The translations under genes were made by a program, and so were the position numbers. Positions 445-7,411 of a DNA stretch of 7,411 nucleotides are shown here, one piece after another; position 1 is the stretch's first letter; each line of letters opens with the position of its first letter. The stretch is from a virus (lineage: Duplodnaviria; Heunggongvirae; Uroviricota; Caudoviricetes), in the IMG/VR virus record IMGVR_UViG_2698536341_000008; one strand, given 5' to 3'. The notes beneath the pieces are model-generated. The model was given only the letters and a program-made list of their open reading frames with translations. It was not told where the DNA came from and did no database searches.

Positions 445-471
445 AAAACCCGCCTTTAGGCGGGTTTTTTC
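445..471. terminator. Bidirectional rho-independent terminator between convergent genes
   Basis: GC stem CCCGCC (449-454) / GGCGGG (459-464) with loop TTTA, extended by A-run 445-448 and T-run 465-470. The T6 tract serves the plus strand; the A-run gives a shorter U-tract on the minus strand. It sits between the stop of the + small gene (425) and the stop of the - gene (473). Confidence 0.7.
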
Positions 472-4396: not shown

Positions 4397-5089
4397 TTAA
4401 TTGTGTCGCTTAAGGGTTTGTGACTGGCTGATTAAGACCTTTCCAAAGACCATAAACCGGTGTTCATTTTCGCTGGTAATTCCCCATTCACGGTAAATCT
4501 GGTTATCAGAAATCACCAGTAGTTTGTCAGGTATCATTTGCAGTCGTTTGACATAAATTTTATCATCAAAACCAAATACATAGATACCATCTCCATCAAA
4601 CTGATTGATACTGACATCAACGAAGATGAGATCTCCTGGCTCAATGGTTGGACACATACTGTCCCCACGAACGTTGATAACTTTAATGTGATTGGCTGGC
4701 CGTCCGCCAAACATCGATACAGCATTATCAGTTCTGTATTCAATGGCATGAATCACATCAATGACATCACCGCCCTGGATAAGGCCATTTCCCGCACTGG
4801 CACTGACATCCAGCATTTCAATACGGAATACATCCTTCACCTGCGCAACATCCTCACTAATACTGTTTTTAAATACAGTATTACTTTTGACGTCTGAGGT
4901 AAAGAGATCAGCAATATCAACACCTAAGCTCCTGGCAATATTACTCAGGGCTTGTTCAGTGAATTGTTTCTGCTTACCTGTTTCCAGGCGTGAGATATTC
5001 GCCGCATCCACTCCTATTGCTTCAGCGAGATCGGCGATTTTCATGTTCTTCGCCTGGCGAAGTTGTCTGACTCGGTTTCCTATGTTCAT
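4397..5089 (-). CDS. cI: CI/LexA-type prophage repressor: N-terminal XRE-family HTH plus C-terminal S24 peptidase (autocleavage) domain, 230 aa
   Basis: N-terminus IGNRVRQLRQAKNMKIADLAEAIGVDAANISRLETGK resembles 434/P22 repressor HTH. C-terminal domain carries the Ser/Lys dyad motifs GDSM (..VRGDSMCPTIEPGDLIFVD..) and ..YVKRLQ.. / ..FGKVLIS... Candidate Ala-Gly cleavage site in the linker (SASAGNG). Divergent from the cro-like gene. Confidence 0.9.
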   Translation of the reverse strand: MNIGNRVRQLRQAKNMKIADLAEAIGVDAANISRLETGKQKQFTEQALSNIARSLGVDIADLFTSDVKSNTVFKNSISEDVAQVKDVFRIEMLDVSASAGNGLIQGGDVIDVIHAIEYRTDNAVSMFGGRPANHIKVINVRGDSMCPTIEPGDLIFVDVSINQFDGDGIYVFGFDDKIYVKRLQMIPDKLLVISDNQIYREWGITSENEHRFMVFGKVLISQSQTLKRHN

Positions 5090-5186: not shown

Positions 5187-5447
5187 ATGCAATCACCATT
5201 ACGGAATGTGCGTAAGACGCACGGATTTACTTTGCAGCATGTTGCTGCTGGCGTTCAGGTCAATCCAGCGACGCTGAGTCGTATTGAAAGACTGGAACAA
5301 ATTCCATCTATCGATCTTGCAGAACGTCTGGCCAATTTTTTTAAGGGTGAAATCAGCGAAATGCAGATTCTTTATCCGGCACGTTTTCAATCTAGCCAAA
5401 ACCAGAATGGGTTTAAACCACAGGAACAGGAGGTAAGCCGTGGGTAA
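5187..5447 (+). CDS. cro: Cro-like XRE-family HTH regulator (86 aa)
   Basis: HTH segment FTLQHVAAGVQVNPATLSRIERLEQ; GGAGG 4 nt upstream of ATG; divergent from the repressor; 3' end overlaps the next gene start by 8 nt. Confidence 0.8.
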   Translation: MQSPLRNVRKTHGFTLQHVAAGVQVNPATLSRIERLEQIPSIDLAERLANFFKGEISEMQILYPARFQSSQNQNGFKPQEQEVSRG

Positions 5448-5997
5448 TCATAACTGGAAAGTGGAAAAACAGCCTGAGTGGTACGTGAAAGCTGTCAGAA
5501 AAACTATCGCGGCGTTGCCGGAGGGTTACGCTGAAGCTGCTGAGTGGCTGGATGTAACAGAGAACGCATTATTTAACCGCCTTCGTGCCGATGGCGATCA
5601 GATTTTCCCGCTGGGATGGGCAATGATTTTACAACGTGCTGGTGGCACTCACTTCATTGCTGACGCTGTGGCGCAGTCTGCAAATGGCGTCTTTGTGTCT
5701 CTTCCTGACGTCGAGGATGTGGACAATGCCGATATTAACCAGCGTTTACTGGAAGTCATTGAACAGATCGGCAGTTATTCAAAACAGATTCGTTCAGCAA
5801 TCGAAGACGGTGTAGTGGAACCGCATGAGAAGACAGCAATTAACGACGAACTGTATCTTTCAATTTCGAAGCTCCAGGAGCATGCAGCACTGGTCTACAA
5901 AATCTTCTGCGCTCCAGAAAATAGTAACGCCCGCGAGTGTGCAGCTCCGGGCGTCGTGGCGTCGATTGCTTCTGGTTGTGGAGAAACTAACGCATGA
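5440..5997 (+). CDS. CII-position regulatory protein (185 aa) with HTH-like segment; function inferred from position only
   Basis: GTG start 5440 preceded by AGGAGG (5428-5433) with a 6-nt spacer; translationally coupled to cro upstream and to the next gene downstream (ATGA overlap at 5994-5997). HTH-like stretch AEAAEWLDVTENALFNRL. Family not confidently recognised. Confidence 0.6.
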   Translation: MGNHNWKVEKQPEWYVKAVRKTIAALPEGYAEAAEWLDVTENALFNRLRADGDQIFPLGWAMILQRAGGTHFIADAVAQSANGVFVSLPDVEDVDNADINQRLLEVIEQIGSYSKQIRSAIEDGVVEPHEKTAINDELYLSISKLQEHAALVYKIFCAPENSNARECAAPGVVASIASGCGETNA

Positions 5998-7154
5998 ATA
6001 GTTTAACGGCAAATAACCGTTTGTCGCAACAGCTGGTGGTCAGCGTCGCTGAACACCTGTTGTTACGGCATGAATGCAGATTACCAAATCACCTGGCTGT
6101 AAGTAACCACAGAGAACTTTACCTGACTGTGGGGGGCGAGTTGTGCAGGAACTTAACCGCTGGTTTCGTGACGGAAGAGGGCTTTATGTCCATGTTATTC
6201 GTTGGGAGCCAGAAACACAGCGCGTTATCTATCTTCGCAAAGACTACCCGCATGAGTGCTTTAGTCCTTTGTGGAAATTCAGGCGTGATTTTGTTGAGTG
6301 TGAAGGACCACCAGCATATTGATTCTGCAATTCCGGGACGTTACACTGCTCAGGCACCTTATAAAGCGGGTGCCGGGATTGGCGTCCTGAAATTGTCAAC
6401 GGCGATGTATGACGCGCCAGCGTCTTTTTTATCGTCCGCATTTGCTCACATCCAGATTATGGTGGGCTGGGCGGGGGCACCGAAAGGTGCGCCGGTCTCC
6501 GTTGACGCCGGTTACGCCAACCCCGTCCAGTTCACCACCAGTGAAATTGGCGTTTCCGGTGGTGGAAGTTTTTCACTGTCAACGGAGGCTGCCATCATGG
6601 CTACGATCCCAGCCCTCACTCAACCTGAAATCACCATTGACAACGGCCAGGCCGTTACCACTTCTTTGGCTGTTGCCAACTTCTTCTCCAAGCGTCACGA
6701 CGATGTGCTGAAAAAGATCCGCACTCTGGATTGTTCCCCAGAGTTTTGTGCCCGCAATTTTGCGGAGACATCGATTTCGGTAAATCAACCGAACGGTGGT
6801 ACACGCAAGCTCCCTTGCTATCAAATCACACGAGACGGTTTTGCGTTTCTTGCTATGGGTTTCACGGGTAAACGTGCTGCCCGGTTCAAAGAGGCATACA
6901 TAAATGCCTTTAACCAGATGGAGAAACAGCTTTCAAAGCCCGCTGTACCGAGCGACGTTGCACATAACGCCAGCGTTCTCTGTTCCTACATTTCATCAAT
7001 TCATCAGGTCTGGCTGCAGCAGCTTTATCCTATGTTGGCAAAAGCCGAATCTCCGCTGGCTGTTAGCTTATATGACTATATTAATGATGCTTCGGCGCTG
7101 GCCTGTCTCATAAATTTGTCGCTGAACCCTTCAGAGGTAAGGGGGCGCAAATGA
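5994..7154 (+). CDS. Rha-family phage regulatory protein (Rha domain in residues ~202-310) with an unusual ~200-aa N-terminal extension; alternative start at ATG 6597 would give a 186-aa Rha-only protein
   Basis: Rha signature as I recall it: TQPEITIDNGQAVTTSLAVANFFSKRHDDVLKKIRTLDCSPEF...YQITRDGFAFLAMGFTGKRAARFKEAYINAFNQME. ATG 5994 overlaps the upstream stop (ATGA). Frame 0 stays open with strong G-first periodicity over 6323-6596. A near-perfect internal RBS (GGAGG 6584-6588, 8-nt spacer) precedes Met-202 exactly at the Rha domain start. Confidence 0.6.
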   Translation: MNSLTANNRLSQQLVVSVAEHLLLRHECRLPNHLAVSNHRELYLTVGGELCRNLTAGFVTEEGFMSMLFVGSQKHSALSIFAKTTRMSALVLCGNSGVILLSVKDHQHIDSAIPGRYTAQAPYKAGAGIGVLKLSTAMYDAPASFLSSAFAHIQIMVGWAGAPKGAPVSVDAGYANPVQFTTSEIGVSGGGSFSLSTEAAIMATIPALTQPEITIDNGQAVTTSLAVANFFSKRHDDVLKKIRTLDCSPEFCARNFAETSISVNQPNGGTRKLPCYQITRDGFAFLAMGFTGKRAARFKEAYINAFNQMEKQLSKPAVPSDVAHNASVLCSYISSIHQVWLQQLYPMLAKAESPLAVSLYDYINDASALACLINLSLNPSEVRGRK

Positions 7155-7375
7155 TCCGGAATATTTTCAAACGGTTTACCAATCATACTTTCCGTTGTCC
7201 TCGTCCGGGTCAGTGGTACACCACGCCTGCTGGGCATGTTCTACGTGTTAGCCTGGTTGACCGTGAATGTCAGAAGGTGGTTTGTGAACCGCTGGGCCGT
7301 AATTACCGCGTCAGTATGCCGCTTATAGCCTTTTGCTCCGGAAAAATGTTTAAGCGTCTGGGAGGTGTGGCGTGA
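7151..7375 (+). CDS. Hypothetical protein, 74 aa, translationally coupled to the Rha-domain gene
   Basis: ATG 7151 overlaps the upstream TGA (ATGA); AGGGGG 5 nt upstream; no recognisable domain (MIRNIFKRFTNHTFRCPRPGQWYTTPAGHVLRVSLVDRECQKVVCEPLGRNYRVSMPL...). Confidence 0.5.
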   Translation: MIRNIFKRFTNHTFRCPRPGQWYTTPAGHVLRVSLVDRECQKVVCEPLGRNYRVSMPLIAFCSGKMFKRLGGVA

Positions 7376-7411
7376 ACTGTTTTCAGTTTGTGTGCGGATG
7401 TGCTTTCGATA
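7372..7411 (+). CDS. 5' end of a downstream gene truncated by the window edge (GTG start; N-terminus VNCFQFVCGCAFD...)
   Basis: GGAGG at 7361-7365 with a 6-nt spacer before GTG 7372, which overlaps the upstream stop (GTGA); open to the end of the window. Only 13 codons visible. Confidence 0.35.
   Translation, partial: MNCFQFVCGCAFD

Follow-up and report, generated by a model that had tools for sequence, protein, structure and literature searches.

What is encoded by the 386-codon open reading frame (ORF) at positions 5994..7154 of the viral sequence IMGVR_UViG_2698536341_000008 (Caudoviricetes)? The stretch of 7,411 nucleotides analyzed here, hereafter the window, comes from an e14-like lambdoid prophage of Escherichia coli, of which it covers the immunity and early-right region; several complete E. 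coli chromosomes match the window at 99.9% identity. The ATG of the long ORF overlaps the stop codon of the preceding gene, ymfL (ATGA), and its C-terminal half carries a Rha domain (Pfam Phage_pRha, residues 222-311, E 8e-28). An initial annotation had noticed that Met-202, the ATG at 6597, is preceded by GGAGG (6584-6588) at a spacing of 8 nt, and all of these features can be read directly in the sequence. It proposed either a recent gene fusion that had retained a fossil ribosome-binding site (RBS) or two isoforms, with an N-terminal part resembling nothing recognizable. From the comparisons described below, we consider it highly probable that the 386-aa ORF is a composite frame running across a spacer, a DUF4222 gene, a promoter, an isrK-like RNA, a C4 antisense RNA and the C4 target boxes a2 and b2, and that the real Rha protein begins at Met-202. 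The internal RBS is the real, C4-targeted start of rha and is neither a fossil nor the scar of a fusion.

Using the product starting at Met-202 as a query, we collected 74 loci from other species, 40 of which were scanned with Rfam; comparisons of the "cassette" cover positions 6342-6596, and those of rha start at 6597. The 185-aa rha product, an antirepressor-type regulator (6597..7154, plus strand), matches Phage_pRha (PF09669) at its residues 21-110 with 97-99 bits against a gathering threshold of 29.9 (E 2.3e-28), together with phrog_821 and phrog_518, both described as "Rha-like", and Ant-type PHROGs. The ATG and a GAGG or GGAGG 8-9 nt upstream of it are kept in every related locus matched to residue 1, across Citrobacter, Edwardsiella, Serratia, Pantoea, Erwinia, Aeromonas and Marinomonas, and, judged from these alignments, such conservation is far beyond chance. 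Codon-position entropy at positions 1/2/3 is 0.49/0.46/1.09 for rha and 0.65/0.75/0.75 for the cassette. Likewise, the share of differing codons that are synonymous in frames 0/+1/+2 is 50%/9%/9% for rha as compared with 15.3%/15.3%/15.5% for the cassette. Protein-level selection therefore begins at Met-202, and the comparative tests detected no frame-specific coding selection on the long-ORF frame upstream of it.

Thus, of the two isoforms considered initially, the shorter one is well founded: the internal ATG with its GGAGG is a genuine start of translation, and the 185-aa product consisting of Rha alone is the conserved protein. The full-length form is not sustained, because the Rha frame is stopped in 19 of 30 cassette-bearing loci, at 7-64 codons upstream of the ATG. 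The strong coding periodicity that had been ascribed to the upstream codons is reduced to a mildly coding-like codon usage over 6342-6596 (+0.22), with a value near 0 over 5994-6322, and no codon-position pattern appears upstream of Met-202 in the comparative tests. Nor is the upstream part the remnant of a fusion partner: it lacks protein-level selection and holds a promoter, a terminator and two structured RNAs. In some loci the upstream frame stays open for 100-400 codons, the extra sequence being different and unrelated from locus to locus. The upstream frames of 300-400 codons in Edwardsiella, Martelella and Izhakiella were considered as a possible conserved N-terminal domain and rejected, their translations being mutually unrelated and having the look of shadow frames.

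The first of the RNA signals is a PisrK-type sigma-70 promoter (6319..6347, plus strand), in which the -35 element TTGATT (6319-6324) is separated by a 17-nt spacer from the -10 element TACACT (6342-6347). It agrees with the consensus at 8 of 12 positions, which is under the threshold of the scanning tool, and was found by comparative alignment: the same -35/17 nt/-10 arrangement stands directly before the isrK 5′ end in 18 loci, in Gifsy-1 and in P4, although the DNA further upstream is unrelated. Across loci, the -35 element is TTGATT or TTGACA and the -10 element TACACT, TATAGT or TATATT. In the window the -10 element ends 6 nt before position 6354, near which transcription is predicted to start. 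This position is also the first of the Rfam isrK match (RF01394; 6354-6430, plus strand; 62.2 bits vs a gathering score of 50, E 8e-12), which bears box a1 (6379-6385, TTGGCGT) and box b1 (6395-6402, GTCAACGG) and ends with an intrinsic terminator, a hairpin followed by a T-run located by a terminator scan at 6411-6430. Going by these signals, an isrK-like RNA of 77 nt is bounded by its own promoter and a Rho-independent terminator. The leader from isrK to rha folds far better than shuffled controls (z = -5.0).

The second structured RNA is a full-length match to the Rfam C4 family (RF01695) at 6455-6542 on the plus strand, scoring 81.4 bits where the gathering score is 45 (E 2.4e-15). To be cut by RNase P from a longer transcript to a stable RNA of ~77 nt and to repress the downstream gene belongs to the definition of C4 RNAs. 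The C4 fold, a long closing stem with two hairpins, shows compensatory double changes in 18 of 27 pairs among 20 sequences that include P4 and Gifsy-1. The loop of hairpin 2, b′ (6496-6507, UCUCCGUUGACG), is complementary to b1 and to a second box, b2 (6577-6588, UGUCAACGGAGG), which contains the Shine-Dalgarno (SD) sequence GGAGG; the b′-b2 duplex has 12 bp, 10 of them Watson-Crick and 2 terminal G-U. Similarly, the internal loop a′ (6514-6520, ACGCCAA) pairs with TTGGCGT at a1 and again at a2 (6547-6553), the a′-a2 duplex being 7 bp long, so that the target region on the rha mRNA, composed of a2, b2 and GGAGG, occupies 6547..6588 on the plus strand. Among 13 loci the loop and target sequences vary, a1/a2 and b1/b2 changing along with a′/b′; b′-b2 duplexes have 9-12 bp within a locus versus a mean of 6.5 bp across loci, and for 12 of the 13 the distance from the end of the b2 duplex to the ATG is 6-10 nt.

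Such an arrangement, with isrK and C4 (or the C4-like sRNA-Xcc1) directly upstream of the Rha start and at the same distance, is found in ~30 of the 40 scanned loci, the hosts of the cassette including Citrobacter, Edwardsiella, Serratia, Pantoea, Izhakiella, Symbiopectobacterium, Erwinia, Aeromonas, Marinomonas and Endozoicomonas. Rfam sRNA-Xcc1 (RF02221) occupies the C4 position before Rha in Providencia, "Ca. Phlomobacter" and Marinomonas (L014, 1367-1453; L023, 1362-1452; L037, 1358-1442), which suggests that sRNA-Xcc1 is a C4-family RNA, though the Rfam output does not place it in clan CL00128. Tandem units of isrK, C4 and Rha also occur, and the two cassettes of such units differ in their a′/b′ specificity. 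One tandem locus (L016) has isrK at 299-376 and 1258-1335 and C4 at 406-493 and 1359-1446, and another (L072) has C4 at 1004-1082 and 1361-1447. In some tandem units the first Rha ORF has no stop codon and continues across the second RNA cassette into the second Rha, giving ORFs of 598 aa (P0001) and 592 aa (P0077).

Contrary to the view that the N-terminal 200 residues match nothing, residues 117-212 of the long ORF (nt 6342-6629) match the Pfam family Phage_ASH (PF10554) with 76 bits against a threshold of 26 (E 3.7e-21). This match continues to residue 212, past Met-202, so that the start codon does not sit exactly at a domain boundary as had been stated. What, then, does this profile describe? 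The match starts at nt 6342, next to the start of the sub-threshold c4-a1b1 match at 6341, and covers the promoter -10 element, isrK and C4: profile positions 1-43 lie over the -10 box and isrK, and positions ~48-78 over C4. As a protein domain, Phage_ASH does not show the marks of coding selection, the synonymous share being the same in all three frames (15.3/15.3/15.5%) with no codon-position pattern. In P4, the ORF annotated as "cI gene product" (8168..8584, minus strand) matches positions 44-107 of the same profile (E 4e-16), and the matching stretch overlies an Rfam C4-family match at 8420-8507, with an isrK-like element upstream (8615-8692). Judged from its position, this C4-family match is probably the CI RNA. 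The peptide of Gifsy-1 orf45, which lies over the same RNA, gave no Ash match when compared with Pfam. The translated cassette is also found within several PHROG families. In each of the systems examined here, which make up part of the Pfam family, the Ash profile describes a translated RNA module. Stand-alone "ash family proteins" of 69-72 aa called in Klebsiella pneumoniae (WP_419181394.1 and WP_228355821.1) are probably C4 cassettes translated as genes. In a recent preprint on Stx phages, Ash is discussed as a protein domain that is fused to Rha and whose function is unknown.

The first 110 codons of the long ORF have a different explanation. Codons 1-49 (5994..6142, plus strand) gave no match in a Pfam scan. 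Compared with K-12, they carry 23/18/21 substitutions at codon positions 1/2/3 and indels of 14, 5, 20 and 1 nt, none of them a multiple of three. This part is a poorly conserved spacer between ymfL and DUF4222 that matches the N-terminal part of the K-12 "ymfM" frame. Under codons 50-110, in a frame one base ahead of the long ORF (its +2 phase), lies a 59-aa DUF4222 gene (6143..6322, plus strand) with a GTG start and a G-rich SD sequence 6 nt upstream, which matches PF13973 (E 9.4e-14, 51.1 bits vs a threshold of 27) and phrog_1343 (E 2e-36). Over these codons the substitutions at long-ORF positions 1/2/3 number 14/34/21 versus K-12 and 3/11/6 versus Citrobacter, and the excess sits on long-ORF position 2, the wobble position of DUF4222. 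More diverged copies, located by tblastn in the collected loci, retain the DUF4222 motif at 42-67% identity; in two of these copies (L009 and L013), 3-5 stops interrupt the frame of the long ORF. A scan of viral contigs for DUF4222 gave 80 loci, all 95-98% identical and thus uninformative for this test of frame. DUF4222 is a separate annotated gene in other E. coli and is present on at least 1000 contigs. Taken together, these patterns indicate that the DUF4222 frame, not that of the long ORF, is under selection across codons 50-110.

Residues 1-90, also said to match nothing, do resemble K-12 YmfM, at 33% identity. Over an alignment of 99 aa, also at 33% identity, the resemblance is confined to MNSLT, in the ymfL overlap, and to the block overlapping DUF4222, with frame-breaking indels in the middle. 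The YmfM frame gave no Pfam match either in YmfM or in its long-ORF counterpart. A YmfM-like protein domain was therefore rejected, the similarity being limited to stretches overlapping ymfL and DUF4222, and no homology of ymfN/oweE with the long ORF was found. In K-12 MG1655 itself, ymfM (b1148) overlaps an unannotated 59-aa DUF4222 ORF on the plus strand (NC_000913.3, 1204001..1204180; L004, 2502..2681), with a TTG start, AAGGAG 7 nt upstream and a stop codon that shares bases with the ymfN ATG (Pfam E 8.6e-19), and there too the substitution patterns favor DUF4222 as the selected frame. The ymfM study cloned the entire ORF, and frame-specific controls were not found on a text search of it; the SfiC filamentation, or SOS-inducible division inhibition, credited to e14 ymfM could thus belong to DUF4222.

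For the same DNA there are at least three incompatible database calls (386, 300 and 185 aa), besides the stand-alone "ash family proteins". A comparison of gene boundaries in relatives, as proposed in the initial annotation, gave a mixed answer: some RefSeq genomes carry one protein of 386 aa, others DUF4222 followed by a 300-aa Rha protein starting at Met-87. The long frame is open in all compared RefSeq genomes, including those with the 300-aa call, and the long form has also been called by independent phage annotators (mEp460, PhiR47_1 and Stx2a_1447). A sequencing error or an artificial fusion is ruled out by the presence of the same open frame in hundreds of independent complete genomes. 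Among 117 full-length database homologues the first 110 residues are 98% identical, a figure that is silent on selection because these homologues are recent relatives. An AlphaFold model of the full ORF has a pLDDT of 20-25 and no secondary structure over residues 101-212, and of 55-59 in the Rha part; because the alignment was too shallow (mean pLDDT 34), we use it as weak support only. Being a G+C-rich structured RNA, the cassette here misleads gene finders based on composition, and its coding-like composition probably explains both the long gene calls and the initial impression of a coding N-terminal half.

Several observations weigh against a composite frame under C4 control. The annotated records examined all call a protein of 300-386 aa, and the RNAs are annotated in none of them. 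The long frame is open in hundreds of prophages of E. coli, Salmonella and Citrobacter, and ribosomes may enter it through its ATGA coupling to ymfL. In the single sequence of the window, the long-ORF frame of the cassette stands out by codon usage, its +0.22 comparing with -0.39 and -0.23 for the other frames. The c4-a1b1 family (RF03163; 6341-6393) scores 22.5 bits in the window, below its gathering score of 46.7, which it exceeds in Gifsy-1 and in related loci (L012, L013, L015, L016 and L072). Finally, the regulatory logic applied here comes by analogy from P1 and may not hold for a cassette of the isrK/C4 type; for Gifsy-1, the reported effect of IsrK is activation through a translated upstream ORF (uORF), the role of the C4-like species having been left unresolved (PMC4825925).

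The AUG at 6459 (Met-156), located in the 5′ stem of C4, opens a uORF of 46 codons (6459..6596, plus strand) equivalent to orf45 of Gifsy-1. Since this uORF shares the frame of rha and no stop intervenes, initiation there could yield a 231-aa Rha beside the 185-aa form, the passage of ribosomes opening the b2/SD pairing. The orf45 uORF at the equivalent AUG is translated in Gifsy-1 and needed for anrP (PMC4825925), for 12 of 13 enterobacterial loci (the window and 11 of 12 others) the AUG lies in the rha frame without an intervening stop, and P1 Ant1/Ant2 are in-frame isoforms according to the curated record. However, the 46 codons lack selection at the amino-acid level, the AUG would be conserved anyway as part of the C4 stem, and it has no recognizable SD sequence. 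Furthermore, the Gifsy-1 uORF is out of frame, that of L072 is stopped 9 codons before the ATG, and a 231-aa form has never been called by any annotation pipeline. We thus regard this additional isoform as rather unlikely. A broader possibility, to which we give a low probability, is that the open frame over the cassette in the enterobacterial clade serves a ribosome-driven override, with entry at 5994 on early-right transcripts or at 6459. If so, translation through isrK and C4 would prevent folding of the terminator and of C4, open the b2/SD pairing and yield an N-terminally extended Rha, and the same DNA would serve the lysogen as an antisense-RNA immunity gene and the derepressed prophage as a translated leader.

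The genuine 386-aa fusion starting at 5994, possibly with a Rha-only isoform, which the initial annotation proposed and which would comprise YmfM-like, Ash and Rha parts, would account directly for a frame that is open and ATGA-coupled to ymfL, open and annotated as one protein in many close relatives, coding-like in composition over the cassette and, in tandem units, read through as ORFs of 592-598 aa. It becomes very improbable in view of what lies inside the ORF, namely a promoter, an intrinsic terminator and a pair of structured RNAs whose targets co-vary with them, and of the selection found, which is on DUF4222 under codons 50-110 and on no frame-specific reading of the long ORF upstream of Met-202. 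In addition, the frame is broken in most cassette-bearing loci (19/30), the upstream extensions are mutually unrelated and AlphaFold finds no fold there. Alternatively, Ash could be a real protein domain overlapping the RNA genes, the peptide and the RNAs of a dual-coding region both being functional; the existence of a Pfam and several PHROG families and a frame that is open over the cassette across the enterobacterial clade, with coding-like codon usage, speak for it. Yet the synonymous share is equal in all three frames, and compensatory stem changes and loop/target changes freely alter the "Ash" residues. Moreover, the P4 namesake ORF lies over the C4-family RNA match of P4, and the orf45 peptide of Gifsy-1 lies over the same RNA without an Ash match, its nucleotides conserved and its amino acids variable (PMC4825925). 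A dual-coding Ash domain is hence hard to credit.

Based on the composite-frame reading, with rha starting at Met-202, we propose a mechanism drawn by homology with phage P1 immI, P4 immunity and the Gifsy-1 isrK-orf45-anrP system. Transcription would begin near 6354, at the internal promoter, and the upstream early-right operon would probably supply further transcripts. Most transcripts would end at the isrK terminator, giving a short RNA bearing a1 and b1, and read-through transcripts would include C4, to be processed to a stable RNA of ~80-90 nt. The C4 loops a′ and b′ would then pair with a2 and b2 on the mRNA and block the translation of rha, because b2 overlaps the GGAGG; this block would probably also lower the expression of translationally coupled downstream genes by polarity. 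The short a1/b1 RNA could compete for C4 or remodel the leader and thereby switch rha on, and Rha would act as an antirepressor-type regulator favoring lytic development. RNA processing, the direction and strength of regulation, downstream polarity and the biochemical role of Rha are all put forward here by analogy with these systems.

The gene order around the cassette is that of a lambdoid early region. A cI-like XRE/S24 repressor gene (4397..5089, minus strand) is followed by a cro-like HTH gene (5187..5447) and by ymfL (5440..5997, plus strand), which encodes a 185-aa regulator of the CII/CP76 family (Pfam Phage_CP76, E 6.7e-13; RefSeq label ymfL) that is 94% identical to K-12 YmfL; the long ORF (5994..7154, plus strand) comes next. 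On its other side, a gene of 74 aa (7151..7375, plus strand; phrog_1153, E 4e-44) overlaps the end of rha (ATGA). Relatives annotate its counterpart before the replication gene, and further genes of the early-right operon follow. The initial annotation had noted that the N-terminal 200 aa sit at the usual place of the replication initiator in lambdoid phages, but the O-type replication gene is found further downstream in relatives, where small genes coupled by ATGA or other overlaps run from rha to the replication (O-like/HTH) gene (L001, 3252..3772; L003, 3467..4285). Because this chain links rha to the replication gene, polarity onto replication is conceivable, and C4 control of rha translation could reach the replication genes in this way by analogy with the P4 CI RNA. 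In two E. coli genomes (NZ_CP148461.1 and NZ_CP074764.1) an insertion of the IS481 or IS3 family lies inside the region matched by window positions 5400-7411, and Rha gene calls are annotated next to the transposase. Near the left end of the window, between ORFs, a strong terminator-like hairpin (446..470, plus strand; AAAACCCGCCTTTAGGCGGGTTTTTT) accounts for a cluster of weak sub-threshold Rfam matches (rnk_pseudo, RNAI, P9, sroH and Leu_leader).

A C4/isrK cassette before an antirepressor-type gene is of a known kind, and what is added here is one more case together with a correction of gene and family annotation. Calls of 382-386 aa labeled "Rha family phage regulatory protein", "peptidase" or "antirepressor" recur by the thousands in prophages of E. 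coli, Shigella and Salmonella and in Stx-converting phages; they conceal an RNA immunity switch of the P1/P4 type and make the protein 201 residues too long. What PF10554 and several PHROG families describe seems to be, for the most part, the translated RNA cassette, and PF10554 is a candidate for retirement or for AntiFam-style flagging. In these lambdoid and Stx phages the cassette lies between cro/ymfL and the replication genes, so that an antisense RNA may gate the expression of the antirepressor and possibly that of the replication genes, and hence induction. The a′/b′ alleles would then define immunity specificities at the RNA level.

The closest comparison for the control region is the immI region of P1 and P7, which shares with the window the order promoter, a1, b1, C4, a2, b2 and start codon. 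In P1 and in the window the boxes have the same lengths (7 and at least 8 nt), b2 lies over the RBS of the first controlled gene, the product is of the antirepressor type and the loop/target sequences are the specificity determinants. The spacings in P1 and the window are, respectively, 14 and 16 nt between a1 and b1, 4 and 5 nt between the end of C4 and a2, 29 and 31 nt between a2 and b2, and 10 and 9 nt between the end of b2 and the start codon. Since the P1 spacings (curated record) are within 1-2 nt of those of the window, Met-202 stands at the position of the C4-controlled icd start. Unlike P1 immI, in which the division-inhibitor gene icd stands between c4 and the antirepressor gene with translational coupling, the window has no icd between C4 and the effector, rha following b2/SD directly, and its leader contains an isrK-type terminator hairpin. 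The effector is a Rha-domain protein, whereas that of P1, Ant1, is of the ANT/KilAC type, and the cassette lies in the lambdoid early-right operon downstream of cro/ymfL, while that of P1 belongs to a separate C1-controlled operon. BLASTP detected no similarity between Rha and P1 Ant1, nor was a relation detectable between DUF4222 and P1 Icd; in the window, the cassette is preceded by DUF4222 and the ymfM frame.

The isrK-orf45(STnc1160)-anrP locus of Salmonella Gifsy-1, described by Hershko-Shalev et al. (2016; PMC4825925), shares with the window the order and spacing of isrK, the c4-a1b1 match and C4, the 54-nt gap between C4 and the start codon, a GGAGG-type SD sequence, the conserved promoter, an IsrK terminator before an antirepressor-like gene and a uORF whose AUG lies inside the 5′ stem of C4. 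Experiments on Gifsy-1 have addressed the translation start of anrP and its RNA control, and have shown that PisrK is active as a promoter and that transcripts read past the IsrK terminator into the genes behind it (PMC4825925). The 45-codon orf45, conserved in nucleotides and variable in peptide, starts at transcript nt 107, is translated and coupled to anrP via an AUGA overlap, and anrP is expressed only if orf45 is translated (PMC4825925). A processed RNA of ~80 nt, STnc1160, was likened by the authors to P4 CI, and it is only in Gifsy-1 that Hfq binding by isrK and trans-activation of the downstream ORF have been shown (PMC4825925). The systems differ in that orf45 is out of frame and ends with AUGA, whereas its equivalent in the window continues into rha in the same frame without a stop; in that AnrP, which stands alone with 187 aa, has an ORF6N domain and is unrelated to the window Rha; in the b′ specificity; and in that the Gifsy-1 cassette lies after antQ in the late region, that of the window in the early-right operon.

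P4 and the window have in common an isrK-like element followed by a C4-family match and the same Phage_ASH profile match, although no Rha gene comes after the ORF in P4. The immunity factor of P4 is the CI RNA, processed from an untranslated transcript and acting mainly by premature transcription termination of the replication operon (PMC4825925). In the satellite phage P4 the immunity elements are ordered seqA, CI RNA and seqC, and the isrK-like leader is the counterpart of seqA and of the P1 a1/b1 region. The K-12 prophage e14, in turn, has the gene order of the window from the cI-like repressor through the cro-like gene to ymfL; coupled to ymfL by ATGA comes an ORF in which a DUF4222 ORF is embedded in another frame. 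It is deleted downstream and lacks the isrK/C4/rha cassette, and its ymfM frame stops after 112 codons. Rha shows no similarity to Gifsy-1 AnrP, as was found for P1 Ant1 and for the pair DUF4222/Icd, so that proteins are not what links these systems. With the ORF6N protein AnrP unrelated to this Rha and with Ant1 being an ANT/KilAC protein, the cassette is a portable RNA switch placed before different antirepressor-type genes.

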